Shown piece by piece: positions 335-19,319 of a DNA stretch of 19,548 nt. The notes below the pieces were generated by a model. That model was not told where the DNA came from. It made no database searches and saw only the letters and a program-made list of their open reading frames with translations. How positions within the stretch are numbered: position 1 is the stretch's first letter; each line of letters opens with the position of its first letter. The stretch comes from Candidatus Geohabitans tengchongensis (GTDB lineage: Bacteria > Sysuimicrobiota > Sysuimicrobiia > Sysuimicrobiales > Humicultoraceae), in NCBI GenBank assembly GCA_031459625.1, contig JAVKIH010000004.1, positions 90,885-110,432 of the forward strand, written 5' to 3'. The position numbers and the translations under genes are program-made.

Positions 335-410
335 GGGGCTCGGCGCTGCACGGCACGCGGGGGCGGGCGGGCGTAGGGGGCGGCGGCGCGCCGTCCCGGG
401 AGCGGGCGTG

Positions 411-1895
411 ATGCCGCCGGCCGCCGACCTCTGGGCGCTGCTGCCCGAGTTCTGGGTGACCGGGCTCGGCCTGCTCCTGCTGGTGCTGGCCGCGGTCGTG
501 CCGGCCCGCCAGGCCAACCTGGTCGGCTGGGTGGCGGCGGCGGGCCTGCTCCTCGGCCTGATCCCCACCTGGGGGCTGATCGAGACCCTGGGCGGGCCGG
601 GACGGCTGGTCCTGGCTCAGACCTACGCCGTCGACGGCTTCGCCGTCTTCTTCAAGGTCCTCGTCCTGGTGAGCAGCGCGCTGGTCGTGCTGGCGGCGGT
701 GGACTACTTCCGCAGCCCCGGCGAGCCTGCGCCGGCGGCGGCGCCCGGGACGCCCTTCGAGGCCGAGGTCTACGTCCTGATCGTCTTCGCCGCCCTGGCC
801 TTCATCCTCATGGCCGCCAGCGCCGACCTGGTGGTGCTGGCGTTGGCCATCGAGTTCGCCAGCCTGGCCTCCTACGTGCTGGCCGGCTACCTGAAGGGGC
901 ACCCGAAGAGCCACGAGGCCGGGCTGAAGTACTTCCTCTACGGCGCGGCCGCCTCGGCGACGATGTTCTACGGTTTCTCCGTCCTCTACGGCCTGGCCGG
1001 GTCCACCAACCTCTACACCATCGCCGAGCGGGTGCGCGGAGGGCCGCAGCCGGCGCTCGTGCTGTCGCTGGCGCTCATGCTGGCCGGCTTCGGCTTCAAG
1101 GTGGCCATGGTCCCCTTCCACCAGTGGACCCCGGACGTCTACGAGGGGTCTCCCACGCCGGTGGCGGCCTTCCTCTCCGTCGCCTCCAAGGCGGCCGGCT
1201 TCGCCGTGCTCCTGCGGGTCGTGGCAGTGGCCATCGCGCCCAGCGGCTTGGACTGGGTGAGCCTGGTGGCGGCGCTGTCGGCGGTCTCCATGGTATTGGG
1301 CAACCTCCTGGCGCTCCCCCAGCGCAACATCAAGCGCATGCTCGCCTACTCCACCGTCTCCCACGCCGGCTTCCTGCTCATGGGGGTGGCGGGGTTTGGC
1401 GGGGACCTCGGCAACCTGGGCCTCTTGGTCTACCTCTTCGCCTACCTCTTCTCCAACCTGGGGGCGTTCTTCGTGGCCTCCCTCATCGGGACGCAGCTGG
1501 GCTCCGACGACATCCCCGACTACGCCGGGCTGAGCCAGCGCGCCCCCGTCCTGGCGTTCCTCATGGCCCTCTTCATGCTCTCCCTCACCGGGATCCCGCC
1601 CACCGCCGTCTTCTTCGGCAAGCTCTACGTCTTCGGGGCGGTCCTGGAGCGCAGCCCCCAGCTCCTCTGGCTGGTGGCGGTGGGCGTGGTGAGCAGCGTC
1701 ATCGCCCTGTACTACTACGTGAGCGTCATCCGGGCGATGTACCTGCTGCCGCCGCGCGACCCCACCCCGGTGCGGGAGCCGGTGGCGCTCGGGGCGGCGC
1801 TGTGGGTGGCGGCGCTGGGGACCCTGGTGGTGGGCCTGTGGCCCCAGCCGGTGATCGATCTGGCGCGCACGGCAGTCTTGTTGCTGCGCCTGTAG
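411..1895 (+). CDS. nuoN: NADH-quinone oxidoreductase subunit N (alternative GTG start at 408)
   Basis: EAGLKYFLYGA, GFKVAMVPFHQWTPDVYEGSPTPV, NIKRMLAYST.SHAG and LSLTGIPPT motifs; about 14 hydrophobic segments; GGGAG at 398-402. Confidence 0.95.
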   Translation: MPPAADLWALLPEFWVTGLGLLLLVLAAVVPARQANLVGWVAAAGLLLGLIPTWGLIETLGGPGRLVLAQTYAVDGFAVFFKVLVLVSSALVVLAAVDYFRSPGEPAPAAAPGTPFEAEVYVLIVFAALAFILMAASADLVVLALAIEFASLASYVLAGYLKGHPKSHEAGLKYFLYGAAASATMFYGFSVLYGLAGSTNLYTIAERVRGGPQPALVLSLALMLAGFGFKVAMVPFHQWTPDVYEGSPTPVAAFLSVASKAAGFAVLLRVVAVAIAPSGLDWVSLVAALSAVSMVLGNLLALPQRNIKRMLAYSTVSHAGFLLMGVAGFGGDLGNLGLLVYLFAYLFSNLGAFFVASLIGTQLGSDDIPDYAGLSQRAPVLAFLMALFMLSLTGIPPTAVFFGKLYVFGAVLERSPQLLWLVAVGVVSSVIALYYYVSVIRAMYLLPPRDPTPVREPVALGAALWVAALGTLVVGLWPQPVIDLARTAVLLLRL

Positions 1896-1909
1896 CGGTC
1901 TGCTATCAT
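1881..1909 (+). promoter_or_regulatory. Putative sigma70-type promoter of the V/A-ATPase operon
   Basis: TTGCTG (1881-1886), 17-bp spacer, TATCAT (1904-1909), with extended -10 TG at 1901-1902; conspicuous in GC-rich context. Confidence 0.6.
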
Positions 1910-2134
1910 GACCCCGGTCTCCGGCCGCCCCGGGAGCGCGCTCCCAGGGCGTTTCGGATGTCAAGAGGCCCTTTTTCCCCCAGTGCGCTGCATACACCGA
2001 CCGACCGGGGGCGCCCGTCGTGCCCGCGGGGCGGGGAAGCCCGGGCCGAGGATGACGGACGGGACCACAGACGAGCGCGTGCCGAGGATGACCGCAGACC
2101 GGCCCCGGTCGGCGTGCCGGTCGGGAGCGTGGTG

Positions 2135-2527
2135 ATGGCCCACCAGCGACACCACCGTGAGGACGGCGAGGATGTCCTGCGCCTGATCGCCGAGAAGGAG
2201 CGCGAGCTGGAGGCGGCCATGGAGCAGGCCCGTCAGGAGGCCGCCGCCATCGTGGCCGCCGCCCGTGCCGAGGCAGAGGCGATCCGGGCGCGGGCGCGGC
2301 AGGAGGCCGAAGCGCTGGCGGCCGAGGCGCGCCGCCGCGCCGAGGCGGAGGTGGCCGCCATCACCGGGGAGGTGCTGGCGCAGGCCCGGCGCGAGGCGGA
2401 GGCGATCCGCGCCCGGGCGGCGGAGCGGGCCGACCAGGCCGTGCGGCTGGTGGTCGGGCGCGTCCTGGGCGGCGTGGCGGACGTGGCGCCGGTCCAAAGC
2501 GGCGGAGCCGGAGGGGGCGCGGCGTGA
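2135..2527 (+). CDS. V/A-type ATP synthase peripheral-stalk subunit G (archaeal subunit H equivalent), 130 aa
   Basis: Ala/Glu/Arg-rich coiled coil (LIAEKERELEAAMEQARQEAAAIVAAARAEAEAIR); first gene of the operon; GGGAG at 2123-2127; stop overlaps subunit I start (GTGA). Confidence 0.88.
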   Translation: MAHQRHHREDGEDVLRLIAEKERELEAAMEQARQEAAAIVAAARAEAEAIRARARQEAEALAAEARRRAEAEVAAITGEVLAQARREAEAIRARAAERADQAVRLVVGRVLGGVADVAPVQSGGAGGGAA

Positions 2528-4539
2528 TCGTCGCCATGAGCCGGGTGCTCGTGATCGGGCCGAAGCGCCTGCTGGCGGCGGTCCTGGAGGAGACGCAGCA
2601 GGTGGGGGCGCTCCACGTCGACCGCATCGAGGCGGAGGAGGTCCCGGCGGTGGCGCCGACCGCCGACGAGCACCGCGAGGAGCGGGAGGCGCTGGAACGG
2701 CTGCGCCTGCGTGTGGATGGCCTCCTGGGCCTGCTCCCGGGTGCGGCGGAAGAGGCGCTCCCCTCGACGGCGGAGGTCGCCGGCCGGCCGGTGGATGCCC
2801 TCGAGGCCGAGGTGGCGGCCATCGAGGCCGAGGTGCAGGCGCTGGTGCGGGCGCGCCTGGAGGCCCAGGACGAGCTCGAGCTCATCCGCAGCTACGAGAG
2901 CGCGGTGCGCGTGCTGGCGCCGCTGTTGGGGGCGCTCAGCGGCAGCCGGGCCTTCGAGACGGTCGGCTTCATCCTGCGCACCCGCGACCTGGCCCTCGTC
3001 CAGGACTTCCGCCGGCGTCTGGAGGAGCTGACCGAGGGGCGCGTCGGGGTCGTCAGCCGCGTGGTGGAGGAGGGGAAGGTCGGCGTCGTCGTCGCCTTCC
3101 TCCGCCGCGACGAGGAGGCGGTACGCAGCTTCCTGGCGCGCGCCGGGGTGAGCGAGCTGCGGCTGCCCAGCCAGTACGCCGACCGGCCCCCCGCCGAGGC
3201 CATCCGGGTGATGGAGGAGCGGCGCCGGGTCCTGCCCCAAGAGCTGGCGCGTCTGCAGGGCGAGCTGGCCGCGGCGGCGCGGCGCCACCGGCCGCGTCTC
3301 GTGGCCATCCGCGCCGTCCTGCAGGACCGTCTGGCCCGCCTGCAGGTCGTCCCGGCCCTGGCCCAGTCCCGCTACACCTTCATCCTGCACGGGTGGGCGC
3401 CCACGCGGCTCGTGGCCACCATCCGCCAGCGGCTGCGCCGCCGCTTCGGCGAGGAGGTCGTCGTCTACGACAGCCCCGCCGACCCCCACGAGGCGGAGCG
3501 CGTCCCCGTGCTGCTCGACAACCCCACGCCCATCCGGCCGTTCCAGCTGCTGCTGGGCCTCTTCCCGCCGCCGCGCTACGGCACCTGGGACCCGAGCCCC
3601 CTCATCGCCGTCACCTTCCCCATCTTCGTCGGCCTGGTCATCGGGGACGTCGGCTACGGCGCGCTCTTCTTCCTGTTCGGGTGGTGGCTGCGCAACCGCA
3701 GCCGCGCCGGGCGCGCCTGGACGGTGCCGGTGCTGGACGTGCGCCTCGACCCGCCGCTGCTCTGGGCGGTCTCCTGGCTGGTCCGGGTGATCGCGGTGTG
3801 GGTCATCGCCTTCGGCGTGGTCTACGGCGAAGTCTTCGGCAACCTGCCCGAGCTGTACGCCCATGCCCGCGGCATCGCCTTCCACCCCCTCTTCGACCGG
3901 GTGCACGAGCCGGGGACGACGCTCTACTTCCGCGCCATCCTGCTCTTCGGGGTGGTGATGGTCTACCTGGGCCTGGTGGGCCACCTGGTGATGGCGCTGC
4001 GCCACCGCCACCTGGAAGGGGTCTTCGAGAGCCTGGTGCTCATCGGCGCCTCCGGGGCGCTGCTGCTCTTCCTGGGCACCCAGGCGCAGATGCTGCCGGC
4101 GGCGCTGGCGCCCTGGAGCCTCTACCTGCTGCTGGCGGCGGTTGGGAGCGTGGTCGCCTTCGGGGTGGCCTCGCGTCGGCCGCGCGGCATGGCGGCGGGG
4201 CTCCTGTGGTTCCTGGAGTCCTTCACCGCCTTCGGGCACATCCTCTCGCACGCCCGGCTGATGGCCTTCGGCCTGGCGGCGGCGGCGCTGGCCATCGCCG
4301 CCAACCAGCTCGGTCCGGAGATGGTGGCGCAGTTCGGCCTGCCCGGGATCGTGGGCGCGGTGGTGGCCACGCTGCTCGCCGGCCTCTTCCAGGTGCTCTT
4401 CTTCCTCTTCACGATCATCGGGCACCTGATCCAGCCGGCGCGTCTGCACTGGATCGAGTTCCTCACGAAGGTGAAGTACCACGACGAGACGGGGCGGCCG
4501 TACGAGCCGCTGCGGTCCGCGGCGTCGCCGCGGTCGTGA
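2524..4539 (+). CDS. atpI: V/A-type ATP synthase subunit I (a), also called NtpI
   Basis: 671 aa; soluble N-half; PVLLDNP...PF, P.YG..DP and FPIFVGLVIGDVGYG motifs; essential-Arg motif ILSHARLMAFGLA; C-terminal RLHWIEF. Confidence 0.95.
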   Translation: MIVAMSRVLVIGPKRLLAAVLEETQQVGALHVDRIEAEEVPAVAPTADEHREEREALERLRLRVDGLLGLLPGAAEEALPSTAEVAGRPVDALEAEVAAIEAEVQALVRARLEAQDELELIRSYESAVRVLAPLLGALSGSRAFETVGFILRTRDLALVQDFRRRLEELTEGRVGVVSRVVEEGKVGVVVAFLRRDEEAVRSFLARAGVSELRLPSQYADRPPAEAIRVMEERRRVLPQELARLQGELAAAARRHRPRLVAIRAVLQDRLARLQVVPALAQSRYTFILHGWAPTRLVATIRQRLRRRFGEEVVVYDSPADPHEAERVPVLLDNPTPIRPFQLLLGLFPPPRYGTWDPSPLIAVTFPIFVGLVIGDVGYGALFFLFGWWLRNRSRAGRAWTVPVLDVRLDPPLLWAVSWLVRVIAVWVIAFGVVYGEVFGNLPELYAHARGIAFHPLFDRVHEPGTTLYFRAILLFGVVMVYLGLVGHLVMALRHRHLEGVFESLVLIGASGALLLFLGTQAQMLPAALAPWSLYLLLAAVGSVVAFGVASRRPRGMAAGLLWFLESFTAFGHILSHARLMAFGLAAAALAIAANQLGPEMVAQFGLPGIVGAVVATLLAGLFQVLFFLFTIIGHLIQPARLHWIEFLTKVKYHDETGRPYEPLRSAASPRS

Positions 4540-4590
4540 CGGGCCGCGCCCGGGCGGACCGGGGCGGCGATGTCAACGGGAGGTGATCGT

Positions 4591-4908
4591 GTGCGTGTCC
4601 TGCTGGTCGGTGTGGTGATGGCCCTGCTGTTCGTGGCGCCCGCGGCCGCGGCCCCGGAGGAGGCCCCGGCGGCCCCGGCGGGGCTGGGGCTGGGGGCGGG
4701 CCTGCTAGGCCTGGCCGCCGCGGTGGCGGTGGGGCTGGGGGCGCTGGGGACAGCCTGGGCGCAGGCCCGCATCGGGTCGGCGGCGGCCGGCGCGATGGCG
4801 GAGCGGCCGGAGATCGGCGGCCGGTTGCTGATCTTCCTGGCCCTGCCGGAGACGATGATCATCCTGGGCTTCCTGGTGGCCTTCTTCGTCATCGGCCGGA
4901 TCCGCTGA
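4591..4908 (+). CDS. atpK: V/A-type ATP synthase proteolipid subunit K (c/L) with N-terminal signal-like presequence, 105 aa
   Basis: Strong SD GGAGGTGAT (4579-4587) before GTG 4591; AQARIGSAAAGAMAERPE and ion-carrying Glu in LALPETMIILGF; single-hairpin proteolipid. Confidence 0.93.
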   Translation: MRVLLVGVVMALLFVAPAAAAPEEAPAAPAGLGLGAGLLGLAAAVAVGLGALGTAWAQARIGSAAAGAMAERPEIGGRLLIFLALPETMIILGFLVAFFVIGRIR

Positions 4909-4909
4909 G

Positions 4910-5488
4910 GTGGCCCACGAGCTGATCGCCCTCCTGGAGCGGGAGGCGGCGGCCGAGCGGGAGCGCGTGCTCGCCGCCGCCCGCGCCGAGGCCGACGAGA
5001 TCCGGCGCGCCGCCGAGGCCGAGGCCCGGGAGGAGCTGGAGCGCCAGCGCGAGGCCGTGGAGGCGGAGGTGCGGACGGCCCGCGTGCGCGCCCAGTCCAC
5101 GGCGCGGCTGCAGGCGCAGGCCCTGGTGCTGGCCGCCAAGGACGAGGCCCTGAACGCGGTCTTCTCTCGCGCGGCGGAGGCCCTGGAGGCGGTGGTCCGG
5201 GACCGGGCGCGCTACGCCCGGGTGCTGGACCACCTGGTCGCCGAGGGCCTGAACGACTTCCCCGACCCGGTGGTGGTGGAGGCGCACCCGGACGACCTCG
5301 AACCGGTGCGGGCGGCGGTGGCCCGCCTGCGGGCGGACACCGAGGTGCGGCCGGCGCCGGACGTGCGGGCCGGCGTCCGCCTGCGCGCGCCCGACGGCCG
5401 CTACGTCGTCCTCAACACCCTGCCCCAGCGGCTCGAGCGCGCGCGGCCGGCGCTGCTGGCGGAGGTGGCACGGGTCCTGTGGGGGTAG
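4910..5488 (+). CDS. atpE: V/A-type ATP synthase subunit E (NtpE)
   Basis: N-terminal coiled coil plus C-terminal domain ending GVRLRAPDGRYVVLNTLPQRLERARP.L.AEVARVLWG; operon position. Confidence 0.92.
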   Translation: MAHELIALLEREAAAERERVLAAARAEADEIRRAAEAEAREELERQREAVEAEVRTARVRAQSTARLQAQALVLAAKDEALNAVFSRAAEALEAVVRDRARYARVLDHLVAEGLNDFPDPVVVEAHPDDLEPVRAAVARLRADTEVRPAPDVRAGVRLRAPDGRYVVLNTLPQRLERARPALLAEVARVLWG

Positions 5489-5529
5489 CGGGCGGCCGCG
5501 GCACGGCGGCGGCGGGCCGCTAGGCGCGC

Positions 5530-6588
5530 ATGCCGGACTTCCCCTACATCAACGCCCGGGTGCGGGCCATGCGCGCCCGGCTGCTGGACAGCGGGCGCCT
5601 GGAGGAGCTGCTGGCCGCGCCCACCTTCGACGCCTTCCTCCAGGCCCTGGCCACCACGCCGTACGGCGCCGACCTCCAGGAGGCGCTCACCCGCCACCGC
5701 GGGCTGGCCGCCGTGGACGAGGCGCTGGCGCGCCACTTCCACGCCACCACCCAGCGCATCCTCGGCTTCGCCGACGGGCGGCCGCGGACGCTCATCGAGG
5801 CGTTTCTGCGGCGGTGGGACCTGGCCAACGTGCGGGCGGTGCTGCGGGGCAAGCACACGGGGCGGTCCCCGGAGGAGATCGCCGCCTCGCTGTGGCCCGC
5901 CGGCACGCTCGGCGAGGTGGCCCTGCGCGAGCTGGCCCGCCAGCCCGACATCCCGGCCGTGGTGGGCTCGCTGGAGGCCCTCGGCCACCCCTTCGCCATC
6001 CCCCTGGCGGAGGGGTTGGGCGCCTACGCGGAGACGCGGGACCTGCTGGCCCTGGAGCTGCGGCTGGACCGCTTCTACACCGGGCACGTCCTGCAGGTGG
6101 CGCGCGGCGGCGGCCACAACGAGACGGTGCTGCGGGAGCTCGTCCAGGCCGAGATCGACGCGCTCAACGTGAAGACCGCCCTCAAGCTGGCCCGCCTGGC
6201 CCCGGACGCGCCGGCGGAGCCGCGCGCGCCGGGGCAGGAGGCGGAGCGCCTGCGCTTCTTCATCCCCGGCGGGGCCCTCACCACCGAGGAGCTCTTCCTC
6301 CTGCTGAGCCACCCGGCCACCCTCGAGCAGGGGTGGCGGGCGCTGCGCGTGCGCGGCTTCCCCGTGGCCCGCCCCCCGGAGGATTTGACCGCCTTCGAAA
6401 AGACGCTCGACCAGCTCCTGGCCCGCGGGGCGGCACGCCTCTACCTGGGGGACCCCCTGGGCCTGGACGTCGTGGTGGGCTACCTGGCCCTCAAGTACAA
6501 TGAGGTCGTGAACCTGCGGTTGATCGCCCGCAGCAAGGCCCTCGGTCTGCCCCGCGAGCTGGTCCGTCGCGAGATGGTGCTGGTGTAG
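5530..6588 (+). CDS. atpC: V/A-type ATP synthase subunit C (d/AC39, NtpC)
   Basis: DFPYINARVRAMRARLL, RWDLANVRAVLRGK and YLALKYNEVVNLRLIARSKALGLP motifs. Confidence 0.94.
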   Translation: MPDFPYINARVRAMRARLLDSGRLEELLAAPTFDAFLQALATTPYGADLQEALTRHRGLAAVDEALARHFHATTQRILGFADGRPRTLIEAFLRRWDLANVRAVLRGKHTGRSPEEIAASLWPAGTLGEVALRELARQPDIPAVVGSLEALGHPFAIPLAEGLGAYAETRDLLALELRLDRFYTGHVLQVARGGGHNETVLRELVQAEIDALNVKTALKLARLAPDAPAEPRAPGQEAERLRFFIPGGALTTEELFLLLSHPATLEQGWRALRVRGFPVARPPEDLTAFEKTLDQLLARGAARLYLGDPLGLDVVVGYLALKYNEVVNLRLIARSKALGLPRELVRREMVLV

Positions 6589-6906
6589 ATGGCGCGCGCC
6601 GCCGTCATCACCGACCCCGAGACCGCCACCGGCTTCCGCCTGGCCGGCGTGGAGGTGCGCGAGGCGGCCACGCCGCAGGAGGCACTGGAGCAGCTGCGCC
6701 AGCTCATCGCGCTGGACTACAGCCTCGTGGCGGTGAACGAGGACCTGCTGGCGGGGACGGAGGAGGAGCGGGCCCGGGTCCTGCGCGGCCGGGACCTGCC
6801 GGTGGTCGTGCCCGTGCCCGCCCCGCGCGCGCAGGTGGAGAGCGGGGAGGCCTACATCGCCCGCCTGGTGCGGGAGCACATCGGGTTCTACGTGAAGCTC
6901 CGCTAG
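6589..6906 (+). CDS. atpF: V/A-type ATP synthase subunit F
   Basis: [18 protein letters not shown]-terminus and [13 protein letters not shown]-terminus; abuts the subunit C stop. Confidence 0.94.
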
Positions 6907-6943
6907 CCCTAGCCTGGCGGGGCCGGACGGGAGGAGGACAGCG

Positions 6944-8734
<1,791 letters not shown>

Positions 8735-8752
8735 GGAGCTGAGGAGGAGCCG

Positions 8753-11749
8753 ATGGAACTCGCGGTCAAGCGCTACCAGTCCATCTCCTACATCTCGGGG
8801 CCCCTCCTCTTCGTCGAGGGAGCCCGCGACCTGGCCTACGGGGCCATCGTGAACATCCACCTGCCCGACGGCAGCGTGCGCAGCGGGCAGGTCATCGAGG
8901 TCTCCGACCGCCACGCCGTCATCCAGGTCTTCGAGGAGACCACGGGCCTAGACGTGGCCCGCACCGCGGTGAGCCTGCTGGAGGACGTGGCCCGCTTCGG
9001 GGTGAGCCGCGAGATCATCGGGCGGCGCTTCAACGGCCGCGGCGAGCCCATCGACGGCCTGCCGCCGATCATCCCGGAGCGGCGCCTGCCCATCATCGGC
9101 GCGCCCATCAACCCGGTGGCGCGGCTGCGCCCGCAGGAGTTCATCCAGACCGGAATCTCCGCCATCGACGGGCTGAACACGCTGGTGCGCGGTCAGAAGC
9201 TGCCCATCTTCTCCGGCGCGGGGCTGCCCCACAACGAGATCGCCGCCCAGATCGCCCGCCAGGCCAAGGTGCTGGGTCAGGAGGAGGAGTTCAACGTCGT
9301 CTTCGCCGCCATGGGGATCACCCAGCGCGAGGCGGCCTATTTCATCGAGCAGTTCGAGTCCACGGGGGCGCTGGCCCGCAGCGTCGTCTTCCTCAACCTG
9401 GCCGACGACCCGGCCATCGAGCGGCTGATGACCCCGCGGCTGGCCCTCACCGCCGCGGAGTACCTGGCCTACGAGCTGGGCGCCCACGTCCTGGTCGTCC
9501 TCACCGACATGACGAACTACTGCCTGGACGGGGCGCAGGAGGTCCTGCTGGCCGACGGCCGCATCGTGGCGGCGCGGGAGCTGGTGGAGCGCCCCGAGGG
9601 GGCGGCGGTGGTGTCCCTGCACGAGGGGCGCGTGGTGCCCGGCACCGTGACGCGGACCTTCCGGCTCCCGGCCCCGCCGGAGCTGGTGCGCCTCCGGACG
9701 CGGTCGGGGGCGGAGCTGCGGGTGACGGCCGACCACAAGATCCTCGTCGACACGCCAGACGGTCCGGCCATGGTCCCTGCCGGCGTGCTCCGGGTGGGGG
9801 ACGAGATCTACACCGCGCGCCGCCTCCCCGTGGTCGAGCCCTGGCAGCCCACGGTCCTCGACCTCCTGGCGGCCTCACCCGAGGCCGACCGCCTCTTCGT
9901 CCACATGCGGAACGGGCTGGTGGCGGACACCCTGCGGGCCCGCTACGAGACGCTCCGCCGGGCGTCTGCGGTGCTGGGGCTGCCGTACGGTCGCGTGACG
10001 GCCGGTCGCGGCCACGCCTGCTTCTCGGTGGCTGACCTGACGGCCGTGGCCCGGGGGACGGGGACGGTGCTGGCCACCTTCCTGCCCGAGGTCGAGCGCA
10101 TCACCGCCGGCACGCGTGAGGGCCTGCGGCTGGGGACGGCCGTCCTGACCGAAGAGCTGCTCTATGCCCTCGGCCTCGTCGCCGCCGACGGGTCGGTCTA
10201 CGAGAACGCCGCCCGGGGCGCGTACTCCCTCTCCTTCGCCAACCGGGAGCCCGGTCTGGTGGACCGCTTCGTCAGGACGCTGCAGGCGCTCTTCCCGGGT
10301 CTCGCGGTGCACGTCCACCCCAACCAGGACGGGGTGCCCATGGCCCGGGTGAACAGCCGCACCCTGCTGGTCCTGGCCCGCGCGCTGGGGCTGCCCGAGG
10401 ACCTGCGCCCGCTGATTCGCCTGCCCGAGTCGCTGATCGCGGCCTTCCTGCGGGGCTACTTCGACGGCAACGGGTCGTGCGTGCTCACCCGGACAGGCCG
10501 GGTCCGTCACCTCCAGCTCACCACCCGGAGCCGCGGCCGGGCCGCCCGGCTCCAGCTGCTGCTCCGCCGGCTCGGCATCGTGAGCCGGGTGCAGACGCGC
10601 CGTAACGTCGGCGGATCCGGGGACGTGACCGTCTGCGACGTCCTGGTCGAGGGGCGGGAGATGGAGACGTTCGCCCGCGTCGTCGGCGCGCACCACCCGG
10701 AGAAGCGCCGGCGCCTGGACCTGGCCGCGGGCGGCGCGCGCGCGGCCGCGGGCTTCGAGCTGGCCCCGCGCAGCTGCGGGAGGCTGCTGCGCCAGGTGCG
10801 TGAGCGGCACGGCGTCCGGGCGGCGACGCTCGGCCCCTCCAGCACGGTCGCCCAGGTGGAAGCCGGGACCCGGCGGACCTCGCGGGCGACGCTGCAGCGG
10901 TGGGTCGCCCGCCTGGCCGGGCAGGTGGGCCCCGAGGACCCTGAGCTGGCGCGGCTGCGCCGCCTCCTGGAGGAGGAGACGGTGCTCGACCGCATCGTGG
11001 CCATCGACCGCTGCCCGCCCTCGGACGGGCACGTCTACGACATCACGGTGCTGCCGGCCCACAACTTCGCCGTGGCCAACGGCCTCATCGTCTCGAACTG
11101 CGAGGCGCTCCGGGAGATCGGGGCGGCCCGCGAGGAGATCCCCGGCCGGCGCGGCTACCCCGGCTACATGTACACCGACCTGGCCACGATCTACGAGCGG
11201 GCCGGCCGCATCGAGGGGCGCAAGGGGACGGTGACGCAGCTGCCCATCCTGACGATGCCGGACGACGACATCACCCACCCCATCCCCGACCTCACCGGCT
11301 ACATCACCGAGGGGCAGATCGTGCTCAGCCGGGCCCTGCACCGCAGCGGCATCTACCCGCCCATCAACCCCCTGCCCAGCCTCTCCCGGCTGATGAACGA
11401 CGGCATCGGCAAGGGGCGCACGCGCGAGGACCACGCCAACGTCAAGGACCAGCTCTTCGCCTCTTACGCCAACGCCGTGGACCTGCGGCGGCTGGTGGCC
11501 ATCATCGGCGAGGAGGCGCTCACCGAGCGGGACCGGCTCTACCTGAAGTTCGGCGAGCGGTTCGAGCGGGAGTTCCTGGGGCAGGGCAACACCGACCGCT
11601 CCATCGAGGAGACGCTGACGCTGGGGTGGAGGCTCCTCTCCATGTTCCCGAAGGAGGAGCTGAAGCGGATCAAGCAGGACCACGTGGACCGCTACTACTT
11701 CGGCGAGACCATGGAGAAGCTCTGGGAGGACCGGCGGCTGCCGCGCTGA
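8753..11749 (+). CDS. atpB: V/A-type ATP synthase subunit B (NtpB) precursor, 998 aa = 472-aa extein + 526-aa intein
   Basis: [31 protein letters not shown] and [62 protein letters not shown]; conserved motif split by an in-frame insertion. Confidence 0.97.
9521..11098 (+). mobile_element. Intein with LAGLIDADG homing-endonuclease domain, inserted in V/A-ATPase subunit B (residues 257-782)
   Basis: Block [14 protein letters not shown]; block [11 protein letters not shown] (TxxH); LAGLIDADG motifs ALGLVAADG (10166-10192) and LRGYFDGNG (10448-10474); [12 protein letters not shown]; blocks [24 protein letters not shown] followed by Cys+1; removal restores TDMTNYCEALRE. Confidence 0.96.
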
Positions 11750-11755
11750 GGTTCG

Positions 11756-11781
11756 CCCGGCGCCGCGCAAGCGGCGCCGGG
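11756..11781 (+). other. Intergenic GC stem-loop between subunits B and D (probable mRNA stability element)
   Basis: CCCGGCGCCGC-GCAA-GCGGCGCCGGG: 11-bp all-GC stem, GNRA tetraloop, no U-tract. Confidence 0.6.
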
Positions 11782-11826
11782 GCGCGACGGCGCCCGCGAC
11801 CGACCGGAGGGACGAGCGGAGCAGCG

Positions 11827-12474
11827 ATGCCTGAGCTGATCAGTCCGACCCGCATGAACCTGCTGCAGCGGCGCAACCAGCTGCGCGTGGCGCAGCAGGG
11901 CGTCGACCTGCTGAAGCGCAAGCGCGACGCGCTGGTGGCCGACTTCTTCAAAGTCGTCCGGGAGGCGCTGGCCGCGCGCGAGCGGCTGGCCGCCGTGGCC
12001 CAGGACGCCTACGTCTTCCTCAGCCTGGCCAAGGCGGTGGAGGGGAAGCCGGCCCTCGAGGCGGCGGCCATGGCGGAGCGGCGGGCCCTGGCCGTCGACG
12101 TGGAGATCCGCAACGTCTGGGGGACGAAGATCCCGGAGGTCCGCGTGACCGGGGTGCGCCGCCCGGCGGCCGAGCACGCCCCCAACCCCGTGGCCACCAG
12201 CGCGCGCACCATGGAGACGACGGCCAAGTTCGAAGCGCTGCTGGACGCCATCTTCCAGGTGGCGATCACCGAGATCAAGCTCAGGAAGCTGGGCGAGGAG
12301 ATCAAGAAGACCACCCGCCGGGTGAACGCGCTGGAGCAGGTCGTCGTCCCGCGCATCCGCGCCGAGATCCGCTACATCGCCGCGGTGCTGGAGCAGCGCG
12401 CCCGCGAGGACATCTTCCGGCTGAAGCGCATCAAGCGGAAGCTGGAGGCCCGGGAGGCGGGGGTGCCGGCGTAG
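11827..12474 (+). CDS. atpD: V/A-type ATP synthase subunit D (NtpD), 215 aa
   Basis: ISPTRMNLL, GVDLLKRKRDALV, NVWGTKIP and EIKKTTRRVNALEQVVVP...LEQRAREDIFRLKRIK; ATG at 11827. Confidence 0.96.
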   Translation: MPELISPTRMNLLQRRNQLRVAQQGVDLLKRKRDALVADFFKVVREALAARERLAAVAQDAYVFLSLAKAVEGKPALEAAAMAERRALAVDVEIRNVWGTKIPEVRVTGVRRPAAEHAPNPVATSARTMETTAKFEALLDAIFQVAITEIKLRKLGEEIKKTTRRVNALEQVVVPRIRAEIRYIAAVLEQRAREDIFRLKRIKRKLEAREAGVPA

Positions 12475-12478
12475 GGGG

Positions 12479-13228
12479 ATGGCCTCGGGCGCTCCTCCGC
12501 TCGTCCGGCCCGGCGCGGCCCGCTGGCCGCTGCTCCTGGCCGGGCTGTTCGCCGTGGCCGGCTTCCTCCTGGCTGCCCAGGTGCGCACGGAGCTGCTCAT
12601 CCGCCGCCACCTGCAGGTGCCCGGCGTGCGCCTGGGGGAGCTCGGCGTGCGCCTCCAGGAGCTGGAGCACCGGCGGGCCGTGCTGGAGGCGGAGCTGGCC
12701 GAGCTGCGTGACCAGATCGCCGAGGCGGAGCGGGAGGCGGCGGTGGGCCAGTCCAGCCTGGCCCGGCAGAACCGGCGGGTGCGCGACCTGCGCGTGCTGG
12801 CGGGGCTCGTCCCGCTGGAGGGGCCGGGGGTGGCGGTGGAGCTGCGCGACAGCCCGCGCCCCATCCGGCCCGGCGAGGACCCCAACAAGACCATCCTCCA
12901 CTACACCGACCTCCACGCCGTGGTGAACGACCTCTGGGCGGCGGGCGCCGACGCCGTGGCCATCAACGGCGAACGCCTCGTCGGGACCACCGGCATCAGC
13001 TGCGTGGGGACGACCATCCTGTGCAACACCAAGCGGCTGGCCCCGCCCTACCGGCTGGAGGCCATCGGCGACCCCGACGCGCTGGTGCGCTACCTGCGCC
13101 GCCCCGGGGGGCCGCTGGAGGTCCTGGAGGCCTTCGGCTTCCCGGTCCAGGTGACCCCGCAGGCACGGGTGCGGGTGCCGGCCTACCGCGGCATCCTGCA
13201 CGTCACCTACGCCCGTCCCCAGGAGTAA
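12479..13228 (+). CDS. DUF881-family protein (YlxW/YlxX-like)
   Basis: N-terminal TM, coiled coil, AGLVPLEGPGVAVELRD, DL..VVNDLWAAGADAVAINGERL and PPYRLEAIGDP. Confidence 0.9.
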   Translation: MASGAPPLVRPGAARWPLLLAGLFAVAGFLLAAQVRTELLIRRHLQVPGVRLGELGVRLQELEHRRAVLEAELAELRDQIAEAEREAAVGQSSLARQNRRVRDLRVLAGLVPLEGPGVAVELRDSPRPIRPGEDPNKTILHYTDLHAVVNDLWAAGADAVAINGERLVGTTGISCVGTTILCNTKRLAPPYRLEAIGDPDALVRYLRRPGGPLEVLEAFGFPVQVTPQARVRVPAYRGILHVTYARPQE

Positions 13229-13267
13229 GGTCACCCGGGCGGCCGGCGGAGGAAGGAGGGAGCGCGC

Positions 13268-13636
13268 ATGTGGTTGCCGGTGATCGGGCTGATCGTGGGC
13301 ATCCTCCTGGGGTTGCTGGTCTCCGTGGAGATCCCGCTGGCCTACGTGAAGTACACCGCCATCGCCATCCTGGCCGCCATCGACACGATCCTGGGCGGCG
13401 TGCGCAGCCAGCTGGAGGGACGCTTCGACCTGGGGATCTTCGTCTCGGGCTTCGTCATCAACGCCGGCTTCGCCGCCTTCCTGGCCGGGCTGGGCGACCT
13501 GCTGGGGCTGGACCTCTACCTGGGCGCGGTCATCGCCTTCAGCATCCGCATCTTCGACAACGCCGGCTTCATCCGGCGGGACCTGCTCGACGCCTACCTG
13601 CGGCGGCCGCGCGGGACGGGCCCGGTGTCGGGGTAA
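13268..13636 (+). CDS. sbp: Small basic protein family (Sbp, DUF1290) membrane protein
   Basis: MWLPVIGLIVGILLG, YTAIAILAAIDTILGGVRS.LEG.FD..IFVSGF, LGDLLGLDLYL and IRIFDN...IRR; usual neighbour of DUF881; SD GGAGG. Confidence 0.88.
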   Translation: MWLPVIGLIVGILLGLLVSVEIPLAYVKYTAIAILAAIDTILGGVRSQLEGRFDLGIFVSGFVINAGFAAFLAGLGDLLGLDLYLGAVIAFSIRIFDNAGFIRRDLLDAYLRRPRGTGPVSG

Positions 13637-13689
13637 ACGAGACGGTGACAGCGCCCGGCGGCCAGCGCCGGGCGGTAGGAGGGGAGAGC

Positions 13690-14703
13690 ATGGTCCGGGT
13701 GGGGATCAACGGCTTCGGCCGCATCGGCCGGCAGGCCCTGCGGGCGATCCGCGAGCGGGCCGCCGACACGGTGCAGGTCGTCGCCCTCAACGACATCGCC
13801 GACCCGCAGATGAACGCCTACCTCTTCGCCCACGACTCCAACTACGGCGCCTATCCGGGGACGGTGGCGGTGCGCGACGGGGAGCTGGTGGTGGACGGCC
13901 AGGCCATCCGGGTCTTCCAGGAGCGCGAGCCCGCGCGCATCCCCTGGCGGGACGCCGGGGTGGAGCTGGTCATCGAGTCCACCGGCCGGTTCACGAAGGC
14001 CGAGGCGGCGCGCGGCCACCTGACCGGCGGCGCCCGCAAGGTGGTCATCACCGCGCCGGCCAGGGGCGAGGACATCACCCTGAACATGGGCGTGAACCAC
14101 GAGGCCTACGACCCGGCCCGCCACACCATCGTCAGCAACGGTTCCTGCACGACCAACGCCCTGGCGGTCACGGCCAAGGTCCTCAGCCGCGAGTACGGCA
14201 TCCGGCGCGGCCTGATGACCACGGTCCACTCCTACACCAACACCCAGCGCATCCTGGACGTCGTCGGCGAGTCCTTCCGCGAGTCGCGGGCGGCCGCGCT
14301 GAACATCATCCCCGCGCCCACCGGGGCGGCCCGGGCGATCTTCCTGGTCCTGCCCGAGCTGCAGGGGAAGATGGACGCCATCGCCATGCGCGTGCCCACG
14401 CCCACCGTCTCCATCGTCGACCTGGTCTGTGAGCTGGAACGGCCGGCGGGCGACCGCGACGCCCTCAACGCCACCTTCCGGCGGTGGAGCGAGGAACCGC
14501 TGCGCGGGATCCTCGGCTACACCGAGGAGGAGCTGGTCTCCATGGACTTCAAGGGCAACCCCTACTCGGGCGTCGTCGACGCGGGGTTGACCACGGTGCT
14601 GGGCGGCAACCTGGTGAAGGTCTTCACCTGGTACGATAACGAGTGGGGCTACGCCTGCCGCGTGGCCGACCTGGTGAAGTACATGGCGCAGCGGGGCCTG
14701 TAG
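13690..14703 (+). CDS. gap: Type I glyceraldehyde-3-phosphate dehydrogenase, 337 aa
   Basis: VGINGFGRIGR, VIESTGRF, catalytic SCTTN, RVPTPTVS and WYDNEWGY; SD AGGAGG. Confidence 0.96.
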   Translation: MVRVGINGFGRIGRQALRAIRERAADTVQVVALNDIADPQMNAYLFAHDSNYGAYPGTVAVRDGELVVDGQAIRVFQEREPARIPWRDAGVELVIESTGRFTKAEAARGHLTGGARKVVITAPARGEDITLNMGVNHEAYDPARHTIVSNGSCTTNALAVTAKVLSREYGIRRGLMTTVHSYTNTQRILDVVGESFRESRAAALNIIPAPTGAARAIFLVLPELQGKMDAIAMRVPTPTVSIVDLVCELERPAGDRDALNATFRRWSEEPLRGILGYTEEELVSMDFKGNPYSGVVDAGLTTVLGGNLVKVFTWYDNEWGYACRVADLVKYMAQRGL

Positions 14704-14717
14704 GACCGACGGCGGTG

Positions 14718-14753
14718 CGGAGAGGGCGGGGGGCGGCTCCTCCGCCCTCTCCG
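14718..14753 (+). other. Strong stem-loop between gap and pgk (mRNA stabiliser or weak terminator)
   Basis: CGGAGAGGGCGG (14718-14729) pairs with CCGCCCTCTCCG (14742-14753) and extends inward with G-U pairs; no U-tract. Confidence 0.6.
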
Positions 14754-14783
14754 TGTGTCCGGGCCCCGGTGCCAGGAGGGCGC

Positions 14784-15968
14784 ATGGCGAAGCAGACCAT
14801 CCGGGACGTGGCGGTGGACGGACGCCGGGTCCTCGTGCGCGTGGACTTCAACGTCCCGCTGGAGGACGGCCGGATCACCGACGACCTACGCATCCGCGCG
14901 GCCCTGCCCACCATCCGCTACCTGCTCGAGCGCGGCGCCCGCGTCATCCTCTGCTCCCACCTGGGGCGCCCGCGCGGCCGGCCTGATCCGGCGCTGCGCC
15001 TGGCCCCCGTGGCGCAGCGGCTCGGCGAGCTGCTGGGGCAGCCCGTCCACACGGTGGAGGCAGTGGTCGGCCCCGAGGTAGAGGCGGCGGTGGCGCGGCT
15101 CGAGCGGGGCGAGGTCCTGCTGCTGGGGAACCTGCGCTTCCACCCGGGCGAGGAGGCCAACGACGACGCCTTTGCCCGCCAGCTGGCCGCGCTGGCCGAC
15201 CTCTACGTGAACGACGCCTTCGGCGCGGCCCACCGGGCCCACGCCAGCACGGTGGGGGTGGCCCGGTACCTGCCGGCGGTGGCGGGGCTCCTCATGGAGA
15301 AGGAGCTGGCCTACCTGGGGCGTGTGCTCGACGACCCGGTCCGGCCCTTCGCGGCCATCCTGGGCGGGAAGAAGGTCTCCGACAAGATCCCGGTCATCCG
15401 CCACCTGCTCACCCGCGCCGACGCCCTGCTGCTGGGCGGAGCCATGACCTACACCTTCCTGAAAGCGCGGGGGCTGGAGGTCGGGAAGTCCCTGTGGGAG
15501 CCGGAGATGGTGCCCCTGGCCCGGGAGCTCATGGAGGAGGCGCAGCGACGCGAGGTCCGGCTCGAGCTGCCGGTGGACGTCGTGGTGGCGCCGGCGGCCG
15601 ACCCGGGGGTGCCGCACCAGGTGGTGCCGGTGGAGGCGATCCCTCCCGAGCAGATGGGCCTGGACATCGGCCCGCGAACGCGAGAGCGCTTCGCTGCGGT
15701 GGTGGAGCGCGCGGGCACCGTGGTGTGGAACGGGCCGATGGGCGTCTTCGAGGTGCCGCCCTTCGACGCCGGCACGCGCACGGTGGCGGAGGCGATGGCC
15801 CGCTCACAGGCCATCACCGTGGTGGGCGGGGGGGACAGCGCCGCCGCCGTGCGCCGCCTGGGGTTGGAGGAGCGGATGACCCACGTCTCCACCGGCGGCG
15901 GGGCGGCCCTGGAGTTCCTGGAAGGGCGGGTCCTGCCCGGCGTCGCGGTGCTGCAGGACCGCCCGTAG
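14784..15968 (+). CDS. pgk: Phosphoglycerate kinase, 394 aa
   Basis: RVDFNVP, SHLGRP, YVNDAFGAAHRAHAS, WNGPMGVFE, GGGDS and HVSTGGGAALEFLEG; SD AGGAGG. Confidence 0.97.
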   Translation: MAKQTIRDVAVDGRRVLVRVDFNVPLEDGRITDDLRIRAALPTIRYLLERGARVILCSHLGRPRGRPDPALRLAPVAQRLGELLGQPVHTVEAVVGPEVEAAVARLERGEVLLLGNLRFHPGEEANDDAFARQLAALADLYVNDAFGAAHRAHASTVGVARYLPAVAGLLMEKELAYLGRVLDDPVRPFAAILGGKKVSDKIPVIRHLLTRADALLLGGAMTYTFLKARGLEVGKSLWEPEMVPLARELMEEAQRREVRLELPVDVVVAPAADPGVPHQVVPVEAIPPEQMGLDIGPRTRERFAAVVERAGTVVWNGPMGVFEVPPFDAGTRTVAEAMARSQAITVVGGGDSAAAVRRLGLEERMTHVSTGGGAALEFLEGRVLPGVAVLQDRP

Positions 15969-16011
15969 GCTGCCGCCCGTCGGCTGCCGGATCGCCCGGA
16001 AGGAGGGTGGG

Positions 16012-16776
16012 ATGGCGCGGACGCCGCTCGTGGCCGGCAACTGGAAGATGCACAAGACCACGCGGGAGGCGGCGGCGCTGGTCGAGGCCCTCAAGCCGCT
16101 CGTCGCGCCGGTGCAGGGCGTCGACATCGTCCTGTGCCCGCCCTTCACGGCGCTGCAGGAGGTCGGCCGGCTCGTCGCCGGCACGGCGCTGGAGCTGGGC
16201 GCCCAGAACATGCACTGGGAACCGCGCGGGCCCTTCACCGGCGAGGTGGCCGCGCCCATGCTCTGGGAGCTGGGGTGCACCTACGTGATCCTCGGCCACT
16301 CCGAGCGGCGGGCCCACTTCGGGGAGACCGACGAGATGGTGCGGCGCAAGGTGGCCGCCGCCTTCGCCCACGAGCTCATCCCCATCCTCTGTGTGGGGGA
16401 GACCCTGGAGGAGCGGGACGCGGGGCGCACGGAGGCGGTGGTGGCGCGGCAGCTGCGGGCGGCCGTGGAGGGGATCGGCCCCGATGAGGCCGCGGCGCTG
16501 GTGGTGGCCTACGAGCCAGTGTGGGCCATCGGCACCGGCCGCCCGGCCACTGGCCAGGAGGGGAACCGCATGGCCGGGCTCATCCGGGGATGGCTGGCGG
16601 AGTGGTTCGGGGACGCGGCGGCCCAGATGCGGGTCCTCTACGGGGGGAGCCTTACCCCCGACAACGCCGCGGAGTTCTTCACCCAGCCCGAGGTGGACGG
16701 GGGCCTGGTGGGCGGGGCCAGCCTGGAGGCGGAGAGCTTCGCCCGCATCGTGCTGGCCGCGGTCCCGGCCCTGTAG
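16012..16776 (+). CDS. tpiA: Triosephosphate isomerase
   Basis: [27 protein letters not shown] and LVGGASL. Confidence 0.97.
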
Positions 16777-17207: not shown

Positions 17208-17292
17208 GCCGGGATGGCGGAATTTGGCAGACGCGCACGCTTGAGGGGCGTGTGGGGTTCCCGTGGGGGTTCGAATCCCCCTCCCGGCACCA
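17208..17292 (+). tRNA. tRNA-Leu (anticodon GAG), 85 nt, encoded CCA
   Basis: Acceptor stem GCCGGGA/TCCCGGC, D-loop GG, anticodon arm CACGC-TT-GAG-GG-GCGTG, long variable arm, GGTTCGAATCC T-arm, ACCA end. Confidence 0.97.
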
Positions 17293-17293
17293 G

Positions 17294-17328
17294 CGAACGC
17301 TTGTTCGTATTTCGTTTTCTCCTACAAT
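17294..17328 (+). promoter_or_regulatory. CGAAC-N4-GTTCG palindrome (LexA/Cheo-box-like) overlapping a TTGTTC-16-TACAAT promoter-like element; could alternatively be the tRNA terminator hairpin
   Basis: CGAAC GCTT GTTCG at 17294-17307; TTGTTC at 17301-17306; TACAAT at 17323-17328; T-rich tract follows the palindrome. Confidence 0.4.
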
Positions 17329-17436
17329 TCGAGCTCGCCGCAGTAACATTTAACAGTCTAGGGAACCCCTGATTTGTGGTTGTACCTTGAGAAAACGAGT
17401 TACGCCAAGACGCTTCCCCTGGCATAACTGCCGAGC

Positions 17437-17571
17437 GTGACGAACCTCCGCCTCGGCGCCGCGAAGTACAGCAAGCTGCGCTGGGATGTTGTCCTGCTCG
17501 ACGCGCACCTCCCAAATCTGCCTGGAAGGCGCGCGACACTCCGCGACTGGTCCGCTGCTTTCTGGCCTTAG
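17437..17571 (+). pseudogene. Possible decayed response-regulator receiver-domain fragment
   Basis: Short frame reads KYSKLRWDVVLLDAHLPNLPGRRATLR, resembling receiver beta3 (PDVVLLDxxLPxxxG); bounded by in-frame stops. Confidence 0.3.
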
Positions 17572-17873
17572 TGCGATTTCGCCATTGACTGCCTCAAGAT
17601 CGTGCGGTCCCGATCCACCTTATCCGGGATGGGCGGCAAGGCGGCGTTGAAAGCCCGCGGCCAGATCGCAGTCATCCCTCAAGGGCGGCGCGGGAAAGAA
17701 CTTCACGCTGGGCATTCCCTTCCACATCGTCAGTGACCGGCGACTGGCGGATTTGAACTGAGATAGGCATCACGCCGCTCCGGGGCCTTCGCTCAGCGAA
17801 GGTAGGCTCCGCACGCAGGCCTCTCCTTGGACGCTGCCGCGAGCCGGCTGGAATAGTCAGTAGCTTCCTGCCG

Positions 17874-17899
17874 TACATACATCAGAAATGTCGTATGTA
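17874..17899. promoter_or_regulatory. Inverted repeat TACATAC-N12-GTATGTA, candidate transcription-factor operator
   Basis: AT-rich 7-bp perfect arms ending 25 nt before the ATG at 17925. Confidence 0.45.
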
Positions 17900-17924
17900 A
17901 CTCCTTACCAGAGAGGGGCGTACT

Positions 17925-19319
17925 ATGGTTCAGGCCGGAGACGCGAGAGTTTCCGAGGGTGCCCCGCGAATCGTCCCCCCGGACCTGCCCATCCTGATTG
18001 GCTTCGCCCATGAGATCCTCCCCGTCCTGATCGTGCTCTGGGTGGCCCTGGCGGTGGCCTGGGCGTTGACCGGGCGCGAGTACACGGTCCCGATGGCGAT
18101 TTGGGCCACGGTGACTACTCTCATGCTCTGGCCGGTCGGCCACCGTCTGGGTCGCCGGTATCTCAGCTATCGTCCCGCCCTCTTCATCCTGGGCGTGCTG
18201 AGCATGGCCTACATTCCGTTCGTGGGCTTTGTGCTACAGTCAAACCTCCCCTATGCGGCCAAGCTCGTGCTGTGGCTACTCCTGCCCCTGGATCTCACGA
18301 TCTTCGCCATCCTGCCCAGCCTACACCAGGGAATCGGCCAGCCCATCCGGATGTTCTTCCGTCCCGACCTCCTCTTCGGGGACGGCCGGGTGCTCTGCTG
18401 CGGCATCATCGTCACCGTGTTGGGACTCCGCTACATGCTCGGCCCTCATCCACCGGCCGGCATCCCCATTGCCATCCCCAAGTGGGACTGGTGGGGGATT
18501 GCCTACGCCATGGCCGCCGGGTTCGTGCCAATCATCCCGCTTCGTGGAATGAACAAGTTGCTGGCCCGGATGAATCGCCTGATCACCGGGCGCTGGGGCG
18601 GGTGGGACGGCATCCTCTTCAAGGAAGGGCTCCTCATCCTCGCTGCGCTCTCCATCGGGTGGGGCTTCCACCACGTCTTCAAGGGCGCGGCCCCGTTCAC
18701 GGCGGCCAGCTGGCACGAGATCCACGAGGCCCTGGAGGCCGGGCACCATCCGCTGGGCTGGCTGTTGCTCACGCTCGGTGCGCTGTGGCTGGTCGTTGTC
18801 CGCGGCGGCTACAAGCGGGCCATCGGCGAGCCGTTCATCAAAGAGACCCGACGGCAGACCTGGATCAAGGAGGTCCTCTTCGTCGTCGGGTTCCTGCCGC
18901 TGTTTCTTGGCTTCATGCTCCTCATCGAGGGGGACTTCGGGACCTGGAACCCGTGGCCGCAGTGGCTGGTGGGGCTCCTGTTCTTCCTGTGGGGGCTGGC
19001 CGTACTGCTCCCCTTCCGGGTGGTGGCCCAGGTGAACCAGCGCCGGGCGATCGTCCAGCAGATGGCGGCGGTGGTGCTGCCGGCGCACCCGCCGGAGGTA
19101 CGTCGGCGCGTGCTGCTCCAGATTCTCCCGGGACTCGCCACCCTCCCGGAGGAGCAGTGTGTGACATACATGCGGGCGATGCAGCAAGCCCTTGATGAGG
19201 CACCTGAGCAGACCCGTCAGGTGATGGCCGAGGATCGGCTCTGGTGCATGGCCCAACTCCCAGGTGAGGTCCGCCGGACGTTGATGCGCCGGATGGATCT
19301 AGCGCTGGCACGGACCTAA
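17925..19319 (+). CDS. Uncharacterised polytopic membrane protein with C-terminal helical-repeat domain, 464 aa
   Basis: SD-like AGAGGGG; roughly 11-12 hydrophobic segments; soluble C-terminal 19-aa repeats; no family recognised. Confidence 0.8.
   Translation: MVQAGDARVSEGAPRIVPPDLPILIGFAHEILPVLIVLWVALAVAWALTGREYTVPMAIWATVTTLMLWPVGHRLGRRYLSYRPALFILGVLSMAYIPFVGFVLQSNLPYAAKLVLWLLLPLDLTIFAILPSLHQGIGQPIRMFFRPDLLFGDGRVLCCGIIVTVLGLRYMLGPHPPAGIPIAIPKWDWWGIAYAMAAGFVPIIPLRGMNKLLARMNRLITGRWGGWDGILFKEGLLILAALSIGWGFHHVFKGAAPFTAASWHEIHEALEAGHHPLGWLLLTLGALWLVVVRGGYKRAIGEPFIKETRRQTWIKEVLFVVGFLPLFLGFMLLIEGDFGTWNPWPQWLVGLLFFLWGLAVLLPFRVVAQVNQRRAIVQQMAAVVLPAHPPEVRRRVLLQILPGLATLPEEQCVTYMRAMQQALDEAPEQTRQVMAEDRLWCMAQLPGEVRRTLMRRMDLALART

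Follow-up and report, generated by a model that had tools for sequence, protein, structure and literature searches.

The gene for the non-catalytic subunit B of a V/A-type ATP synthase is split by an intein of 526 residues in the 19,548-nucleotide stretch of DNA analysed here (the window). We hold with high confidence that this is a same-site element, likely selfish and predicted to self-splice, that has likely homed between archaea and bacteria more than once, and that the nuclease of the window copy is predicted to be disabled. By alignment it belongs to an allele that Methanopyrus kandleri also carries, of which it is a new bacterial representative, and the distribution of this allele is apparently undescribed so far.

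The open reading frame at 8753-11749 (+) encodes 998 aa and matches the NCBIfam model for V-type ATP synthase subunit B (E 4.7e-227). The insert that had been read from the DNA alone occupies residues 257-782; its translation is free of stops from CLDG to VSN and lies in frame between TDMTNY and CEALRE (full pattern TDMTNY/C...SN/CEALRE; Table 1). It exceeds the cut-offs of Pfam Intein_splicing (57.8 bits; cut-off 35.8) and LAGLIDADG_3 (70.7 bits; cut-off 22.5) and of both the N- and C-terminal intein models of NCBIfam, and its flanks match Pfam ATP-synt_ab, ATP-synt_ab_N and ATP-synt_VA_C. The intein-less alleles that the original prediction proposed to seek in relatives exist: their subunit B genes carry the exact empty junction TDMTNY/CE[AS]LR, so that the insert is missing from host orthologues in the manner of a class 1 cis-splicing intein. 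When subunit A is aligned with an intein-free subunit B, the insertion site falls five residues past the Asp aligned to the VALMAD Walker B strand of subunit A, in agreement with the predicted position just beyond the equivalent strand. Subunit A had been described as intein-free, and a Pfam search of its 596 aa gave no intein match.

Table 1. Features of the V/A-ATPase operon and of the subunit B intein in the window.
Feature	Position	Strand	Basis
V/A-ATPase operon, complete, order I-K-E-C-F-A-B-D	2524..12474	+	ORFs, Pfam
Operon genes I; K/c; E; C; F; D	2524-4539; 4570-4908; 4910-5488; 5530-6588; 6589-6906; 11827-12474	+	ORFs, Pfam
Catalytic subunit A, 596 aa, intein-free; VMA-a and VMA-b sites empty	6944..8734	+	ORF, Pfam, NCBIfam
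N-extein of V/A-ATPase subunit B, 256 aa, ends TDMTNY	8753..9520	+	ORF, Pfam, NCBIfam
Intein, 526 aa, allelic with the M. kandleri subunit B insert	9521..11098	+	translation, Pfam, NCBIfam, alignment
N-terminal splicing (HINT) part: Cys1 9521-23, block B Thr69 9725-27, His72 9734-36	9521..9832 (end approximate)	+	NCBIfam, alignment, model
First helical accessory region, residues ~105-205, no Pfam match	9833..10135	+	predicted structure layout
LAGLIDADG homing endonuclease domain: block C Asp223 10187-89, block E Asn317 10469-71	10136..10720 (boundaries approximate)	+	Pfam, alignment
Second helical accessory region, helix-turn-helix-like, no Pfam match	10721..10972	+	predicted layout
C-terminal splicing part: block F Asp507 11039-41, His514 11060-62, Ser525, Asn526 11096-98	10973..11098	+	NCBIfam, alignment
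C-extein of subunit B, 216 aa, starts with Cys+1 (11099-101)	11099..11749	+	ORF, Pfam

The domain layout was taken from an AlphaFold model (pLDDT 70.6, pTM 0.44, 5 sequences), which was used for this purpose only and in which the HINT domain is not closed. The predicted model structurally matches TliVMA (PDB 7QSS; E 1e-16), PI-PkoII and PI-PfuI, its best matches, and I-DmoI, which together with the LAGLIDADG_3 match identifies a LAGLIDADG homing intein. The first helical accessory region is likely a DNA-binding accessory domain, a function that we infer; for the second, a single relative gives a weak HTH_31 match (E 0.011). A promoter scan gave no signal beyond chance. The operon lies between nuoM/nuoN-like genes and genes for DUF881 and DUF1290 proteins (window 8-16776), and the latter are followed by three genes that we take to be gap, pgk and tpi. 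Further downstream (17208-19319), a tRNA-Leu(GAG) (17208-17292) precedes a stretch of lower GC (0.62-0.67 vs ~0.73), possibly the edge of an island, with a membrane-type ORF of 464 aa (17925-19319) for which Pfam, NCBIfam and Atlas gave no usable match.

All splicing residues listed in the original prediction (Cys1, Thr69/His72, Asp507, His514, Asn526 and Cys+1) are in place. Across 136 aligned inteins, a set that contains near-duplicates, Cys1, Asp507 and Asn526 occur in all 136, His72 in 132 and His514 in 120. The HINT domain, Cys1, block B TxxH, block F Asp, terminal Asn and Cys+1 assign the insert to class 1. A penultimate His, usual but not obligatory in this class, is replaced by Ser in 136 of 136 inteins, M. 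kandleri included, so the block F His, present here as His514, probably assists Asn cyclisation. Other active inteins also lack a penultimate His, and the roles we give to the splicing residues draw in part on general intein chemistry. They follow the scheme in the accessible text of PMC7765530: the 998-aa precursor would fold, Cys1 would perform the N-S acyl shift, aided by Thr69/His72, and the N-extein would be handed to Cys+1; Asn526 would then cyclise, with block F Asp507/His514 replacing the absent penultimate His, and a subunit B of 472 aa would be freed for A3B3 assembly. The chemistry is thus ordinary, and the intein is predicted to splice itself out by the standard class 1 route. Comparison with a 93%-identical strain gave pN/pS values of 0.11 and 0.08 for the N- and C-terminal splicing parts, 0.04 and 0.09 for the exteins and 0.31 for the nuclease (uncorrected values from one independent comparison, as loci L086 and L087 are identical), indicating strong purifying selection on the splicing parts. 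One contig from an RNA library, in which DNA carry-over is possible, covers both junctions with zero differences.

The original prediction mentioned a B-subunit intein in M. kandleri, and its subunit B (Q8TUT0, AATB_METKA, 990 aa) indeed holds a homologous insert of 517 aa at the same junction, alignable end to end with that of the window. This insert is presumably annotated as an intein in InBase, under the name 'Mka VatB', and in Swiss-Prot. The two share the Ser-Asn end, the layout of the accessory regions and the LAGLIDADG motifs; they differ in length (526 vs 517 aa, 37.8% identity), in host (bacterial vs archaeal), in their branch of the intein tree and in block E, which has Asp in M. 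kandleri and Asn in the window. The insertion point is identical and the homology full-length, so the site itself is not new. The archaeal VMA-b inteins TliVMA and PhoVMA (PDB 7QST) and the yeast VMA-a intein PI-SceI likewise combine HINT, LAGLIDADG and accessory domains, and PhoVMA is also without nuclease activity, having lost its block C and E aspartates according to the accessible text of PMC8966425. The VMA-a and VMA-b inteins, in contrast, sit in catalytic subunit A, at the P-loop or ~20 residues from it (accessible parts of PMC2814812 and PMC8966425). The window intein lies in subunit B, is not allelic with them and is 12-17% identical to them in a structural alignment that uses the predicted model. 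Its nearest non-allelic relatives in sequence searches, 28-34% identical over most or all of the insert, occupy other sites in other host genes; those with ends examined have Cys1 and Asn/Cys+1.

A protein search that scored 8000 candidates gave 93 matches, of which 89 are intein-bearing subunit B proteins. Of these, 81 show both junctions at the same site; in two others the N-junction is variant, and six, apparently incomplete sequences, miss one junction. In 185,579 species genomes, the exact junction pattern recovered 39 loci. By label, archaea account for 25 of them (Asgard, Caldarchaeales, Nitrososphaerales, Desulfurococcales, Thermoplasmata, DPANN, Methanophagales and others) and bacteria for 14; the total is a minimum, since the pattern misses AARK variants, M. 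kandleri is unlisted and the window's own genome was left out. Within the phylum Sysuimicrobiota, 13 of 94 genomes carry the intein (E <=1e-25, a search that mini-inteins would escape; one partial and one probably contaminating contig are included), and in 55 of the 94 the site is strictly empty. The empty allele is therefore about four times commoner than the full one, and both occur within each of seven genera (g2, g3, g5, g23, g27, g29 and g15). The predicted rarity of the allele in Bacteria holds overall, given 14 bacterial-labelled loci among 39, but not in Sysuimicrobiota, and carriers come from no fewer than three further bacterial lineages. One is a member of the Rubrobacteraceae, with the gene on a 206-kb contig; two of its relatives have empty, 95-96% identical genes. 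Two more are known from carrier proteins whose exteins are 95.0% identical to subunit B of Ca. Acetothermia (Bipolaricaulota) and 95.9% identical to that of Ca. Poribacteria; many carrier hosts are metagenome proteins placed by extein similarity only. For three further carrier proteins of bacterial type, the hosts have no placement.

Binning or labelling errors seem to affect at least three carrier contigs, which were not counted as transfers: L047, labelled Steroidobacteraceae, is a 2.7-kb contig whose extein is 99.8% identical to the Sysuimicrobiota type; L066, labelled Methanosarcinales, has ~97% DNA identity to a Woesearchaeota locus; and L060, 3.1 kb long and 99.7% identical to G012, belongs to genome G097, where an empty site is present too. 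A join skipping exactly 1578 bases in run X5 (two contigs, side of 21 letters) was likewise rejected as an empty allele of the window species, because other organisms may have contributed it; runs whose word share was small were excluded. In the search for a vector, 72,556 plasmids held no close copy, nor was there one among the matches listed for viral contigs, in which at least 76 loci align weakly with parts of the intein (best listed E 9e-12). Large gaps break the subunit A matches of archaeal loci L043, L044, L046 and L066, so subunits A and B probably both carry inteins there. The Thermoplasmata genome G065 (L049) has an intein-bearing subunit B and an intein-free second copy on another contig.

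In the nuclease of the window copy, block C Asp223 is intact and the second LAGLIDADG motif (block E) reads FDGNG, not FDGDG; neither this change nor the penultimate Ser had been mentioned in the original prediction. An active LAGLIDADG endonuclease has an acidic residue in both motifs, and Asn317 leaves one of them without it. At position 317, 120 of the 136 aligned inteins have Asp and five have Asn, three of the five being the window and two near-identical proteins. The AAC codon (10469-71) is backed by contigs of a DNA run and an RNA run (X1, X4), with no other letter; Asp is found in runs X5 and X6 and in metagenome loci L086 and L087, which represent strains 91-93% identical. The catalytic acids of LAGLIDADG nucleases sit in blocks C and E (accessible text of PMC8966425), and one Asp-to-Asn exchange confined to one half of the protein was enough to stop double-strand cutting by single-chain I-CreI or I-MsoI (accessible text of PMC2655683). 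The window nuclease, probably disabled, is predicted to have lost double-strand cutting; with Asn in place of the block E Asp, homing of this copy is probably lost and inheritance in the window population is probably vertical only now. The nuclease pN/pS of 0.31 suggests that the loss is probably recent. As D22N single-chain I-MsoI retained nicking activity (same part of PMC2655683), the Asn317 copy may retain some activity. Both acids are kept in 70 of 82 cluster representatives; eight have one or both changed and four have the domain deleted or gapped. This series is the cycle of invasion, decay and loss expected of a selfish intein. In an intact lineage, the free intein would cut empty TNY/CEALRE alleles and be copied in by repair; Asn317 would be the first step of the usual decay toward a mini-intein or loss.

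The host genome (2.76 Mb, 73% GC, 94% complete) is assigned to Sysuimicrobiota (CSP1-3): three loci of genomes in its family are identical to loci recovered by the GTDB scan, of which two are labelled Sysuimicrobiota, one of these being in Ca. Humicultoraceae. The sequencing runs that match it best are metagenomes of hot springs; four belong to a single study, which may be the source of the genome. In this 94%-complete genome, no F-type beta subunit exceeded the cut-off, and subunit B was found only once; among 61 Sysuimicrobiota genomes searched, an F-type beta subunit was found in two and none over cut-off in 59. The phylum appears to rely on a Thermus-like V/A-ATPase; the subunit B extein of the window is close to the subunit B of Thermus thermophilus, whose site is empty. 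Because no F-type synthase was found, splicing is predicted to be probably essential in this host, and A3B3 assembly probably depends on it, as had been proposed. The further proposal of a post-translational checkpoint on ATP synthesis fared less well. Under this reading, a domesticated intein would gate assembly of the sole ATP synthase by splicing conditionally on temperature, salt or redox state (through a Cys1/Cys+1 disulfide). Such splicing is documented for other inteins in the accessible parts of PMC7765530 and PMC4760082; with no F-type beta in the host or in 59 of 61 genomes of the phylum, splicing would control ATP synthesis; once the nuclease is lost, mini-inteins of 178-180 aa persist; and the nearest inteins outside subunit B lie largely in energy enzymes (25 of the best 150 matches scanned). 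We nevertheless consider a checkpoint improbable. Of 94 genomes of the phylum, 55 have the site empty and 13 are carriers, and the two states occur side by side within genera; 70 of 82 representatives keep both nuclease acids, as expected if homing maintains the element, and some carriers have decayed or deleted nucleases; the N-extein has no Cys near the junction; and splicing is obligatory for any intein in an essential gene, a necessity that does not amount to regulation. No result pointed to conditional splicing.

The case for a mobile selfish element also draws on the conflict between extein and intein trees, which had been proposed as the way to examine transfer between domains. The extein tree (61 rows, four duplicate loci dropped and partial loci left out) recovers the 35 Sysuimicrobiota-type rows as a single clade (SH-aLRT 100), within which full and empty alleles are intermixed. 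The intein tree (44 rows chosen from 124, 42 in an earlier version, two long outgroups dropped) is rooted on four distant long-branch inteins, and the tree tool flagged uneven amino-acid composition in the window row and ~20 others. All subunit B inteins form one clade against the outgroup (100/99). Within it, the window groups with its own family, the Rubrobacteraceae carrier (99/96) and the Bipolaricaulota-like carrier (99/98), in a 12-row bacterial clade with support of 86/82, and the inteins of other Sysuimicrobiota families join Thermoplasmata and Micrarchaeia (100/100). AU tests, run after sight of the first tree, rejected a single bacterial intein clade (p-AU 2e-96, 13/42 rows, before the Bipolaricaulota- and Poribacteria-like rows were added) and a single Sysuimicrobiota intein clade (p-AU 1e-4, 14/44 rows); the extein data rejected a clade of the bacterial group with the Thermoplasmata/Micrarchaeia hosts (p-AU 1e-67). 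Pairwise identities between Rubrobacteraceae and CSP1-3 are 57.5% for the extein and 57.1% for the intein, and those between the window and CSP1-3 86.5% and 60.8%. The incongruence supports lateral, cross-domain movement, and the trees provide good evidence that such movement was repeated.

We regard a purely vertical history as very unlikely. It would place the intein in the ancestral Sysuimicrobiota subunit B, or let it enter once with a whole archaeal operon, followed by losses only. The codon use of the intein is fully host-like (GC3 0.96 vs 0.97-0.995), so its arrival was not recent and its residence has been long, and most inteins of family f1 form one clade. Against this, the Sysuimicrobiota inteins do not form one clade whereas the exteins do, the extein is close to the empty T. 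thermophilus gene, and the Rubrobacteraceae, Bipolaricaulota-like and Poribacteria-like inteins are nearer to the window (50-53% and 46%) than those of other Sysuimicrobiota (42-44%). A vertical history is contradicted for the phylum as a whole and may still hold for the window's own family. For the mobile element, the deepest intein branches are archaeal with the distant-intein outgroup (99/96 and 98/91), so an archaeal origin of the allele is likely. The Sysuimicrobiota-type intein P0075 branches just outside the archaeal rows of the second group (90/69), and the direction of cross-domain movement is only partly resolved.

The residue at +1 in empty alleles adds a lead on how the element enters new hosts. 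Among the best 120 intein-free matches to the Bipolaricaulota-like extein, +1 is Ala in 67, Cys in 44 and another residue in three (six unread). The 11 closest intein-free proteins to this carrier all have Ala or Val where carriers have Cys, and Ala also stands at +1 in the nearest empty alleles, 95-96% identical, to the Rubrobacteraceae and Poribacteria-like carriers. Either the intein brings Cys+1 at arrival, or hosts change Cys to Ala after intein loss; the Rubrobacteraceae tree needs two changes under either reading, so arrival with Cys stays a lead. Tentatively, and with slightly less than even confidence, we propose that one allele crossed the boundary between archaea and bacteria at least twice and homed into the B genes of at least four bacterial phyla, including splicing-incompetent Ala+1 genes, by writing in its own Cys+1; one of the transfers may run from bacteria to Thermoplasmata/Micrarchaeia.

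That the split gene is a chimeric assembly or a non-splicing pseudogene is hardly credible and largely refuted: the genome is a metagenome bin and its best runs come from one study, perhaps its source, but individual contigs read through both junctions in one DNA run, one RNA run and one run from a different study, eight proteins fall in the 90% cluster, the exteins are under purifying selection (pN/pS 0.04 and 0.09), and the host genome has no second subunit B.

Our full-text literature search, with subscription journals mostly outside its coverage, found no paper describing a subunit B intein or bacterial carriers. In line with the original prediction, the accessible parts of surveys place the classic V/A-ATPase inteins in subunit A only, in yeasts and archaea. 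The accessible text and supplement file 2 of PMC4760082 list 12 V-ATPase inteins, all in archaeal subunit A, with no COG1156 match; its tables are top-15 lists and therefore weak evidence of absence. PMC2814812 covers VMA-a and VMA-b only in its accessible text and three supplements, the accessible parts of PMC5784728, PMC5706428, PMC3655853 and bioRxiv 10.64898/2026.10.01.756066 contain nothing on subunit B, and the word intein is absent from PMC11604079, on the phylum Sysuimicrobiota. The present allele extends the selfish elements of this enzyme to a second, non-catalytic subunit and to movement between domains, and therefore marks DNA contact of hot-spring, subsurface and soil archaea and bacteria. 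T. thermophilus subunit B, with the same site empty and Cys present, makes the allele testable, and the natural strains differing at one nuclease residue are a ready pair for work on homing, decay and cost or control of ATP synthesis.

Several observations concern other inteins. The host genome holds four more, in SufB, DnaB (locus partly masked), a helicase that resembles UvrB in its motifs and whose intein has an HTH accessory domain, and a radical SAM protein whose CxxxCxxC motif is split by the intein (L070, L071, L073 and L074). The nearest non-allelic inteins (25 of the best 150 matches scanned) lie mostly in energy enzymes, plus TruB and MCM. These enzymes are an Fe-S flavoprotein, the 49-kDa and 20-kDa subunits of complex I/hydrogenase, a TPP oxidoreductase beta subunit and ACS/CODH, with host-protein domains of archaeal type (Fer4/pyridine-nucleotide oxidoreductase, Complex1_49kDa, Oxidored_q6, TPP_enzyme_C and ACS/CODH). 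At the subunit B site itself, loci L062, L063 and L047 carry mini-inteins of 178-180 aa, which are candidate small Ser-Asn/Cys inteins for protein engineering.
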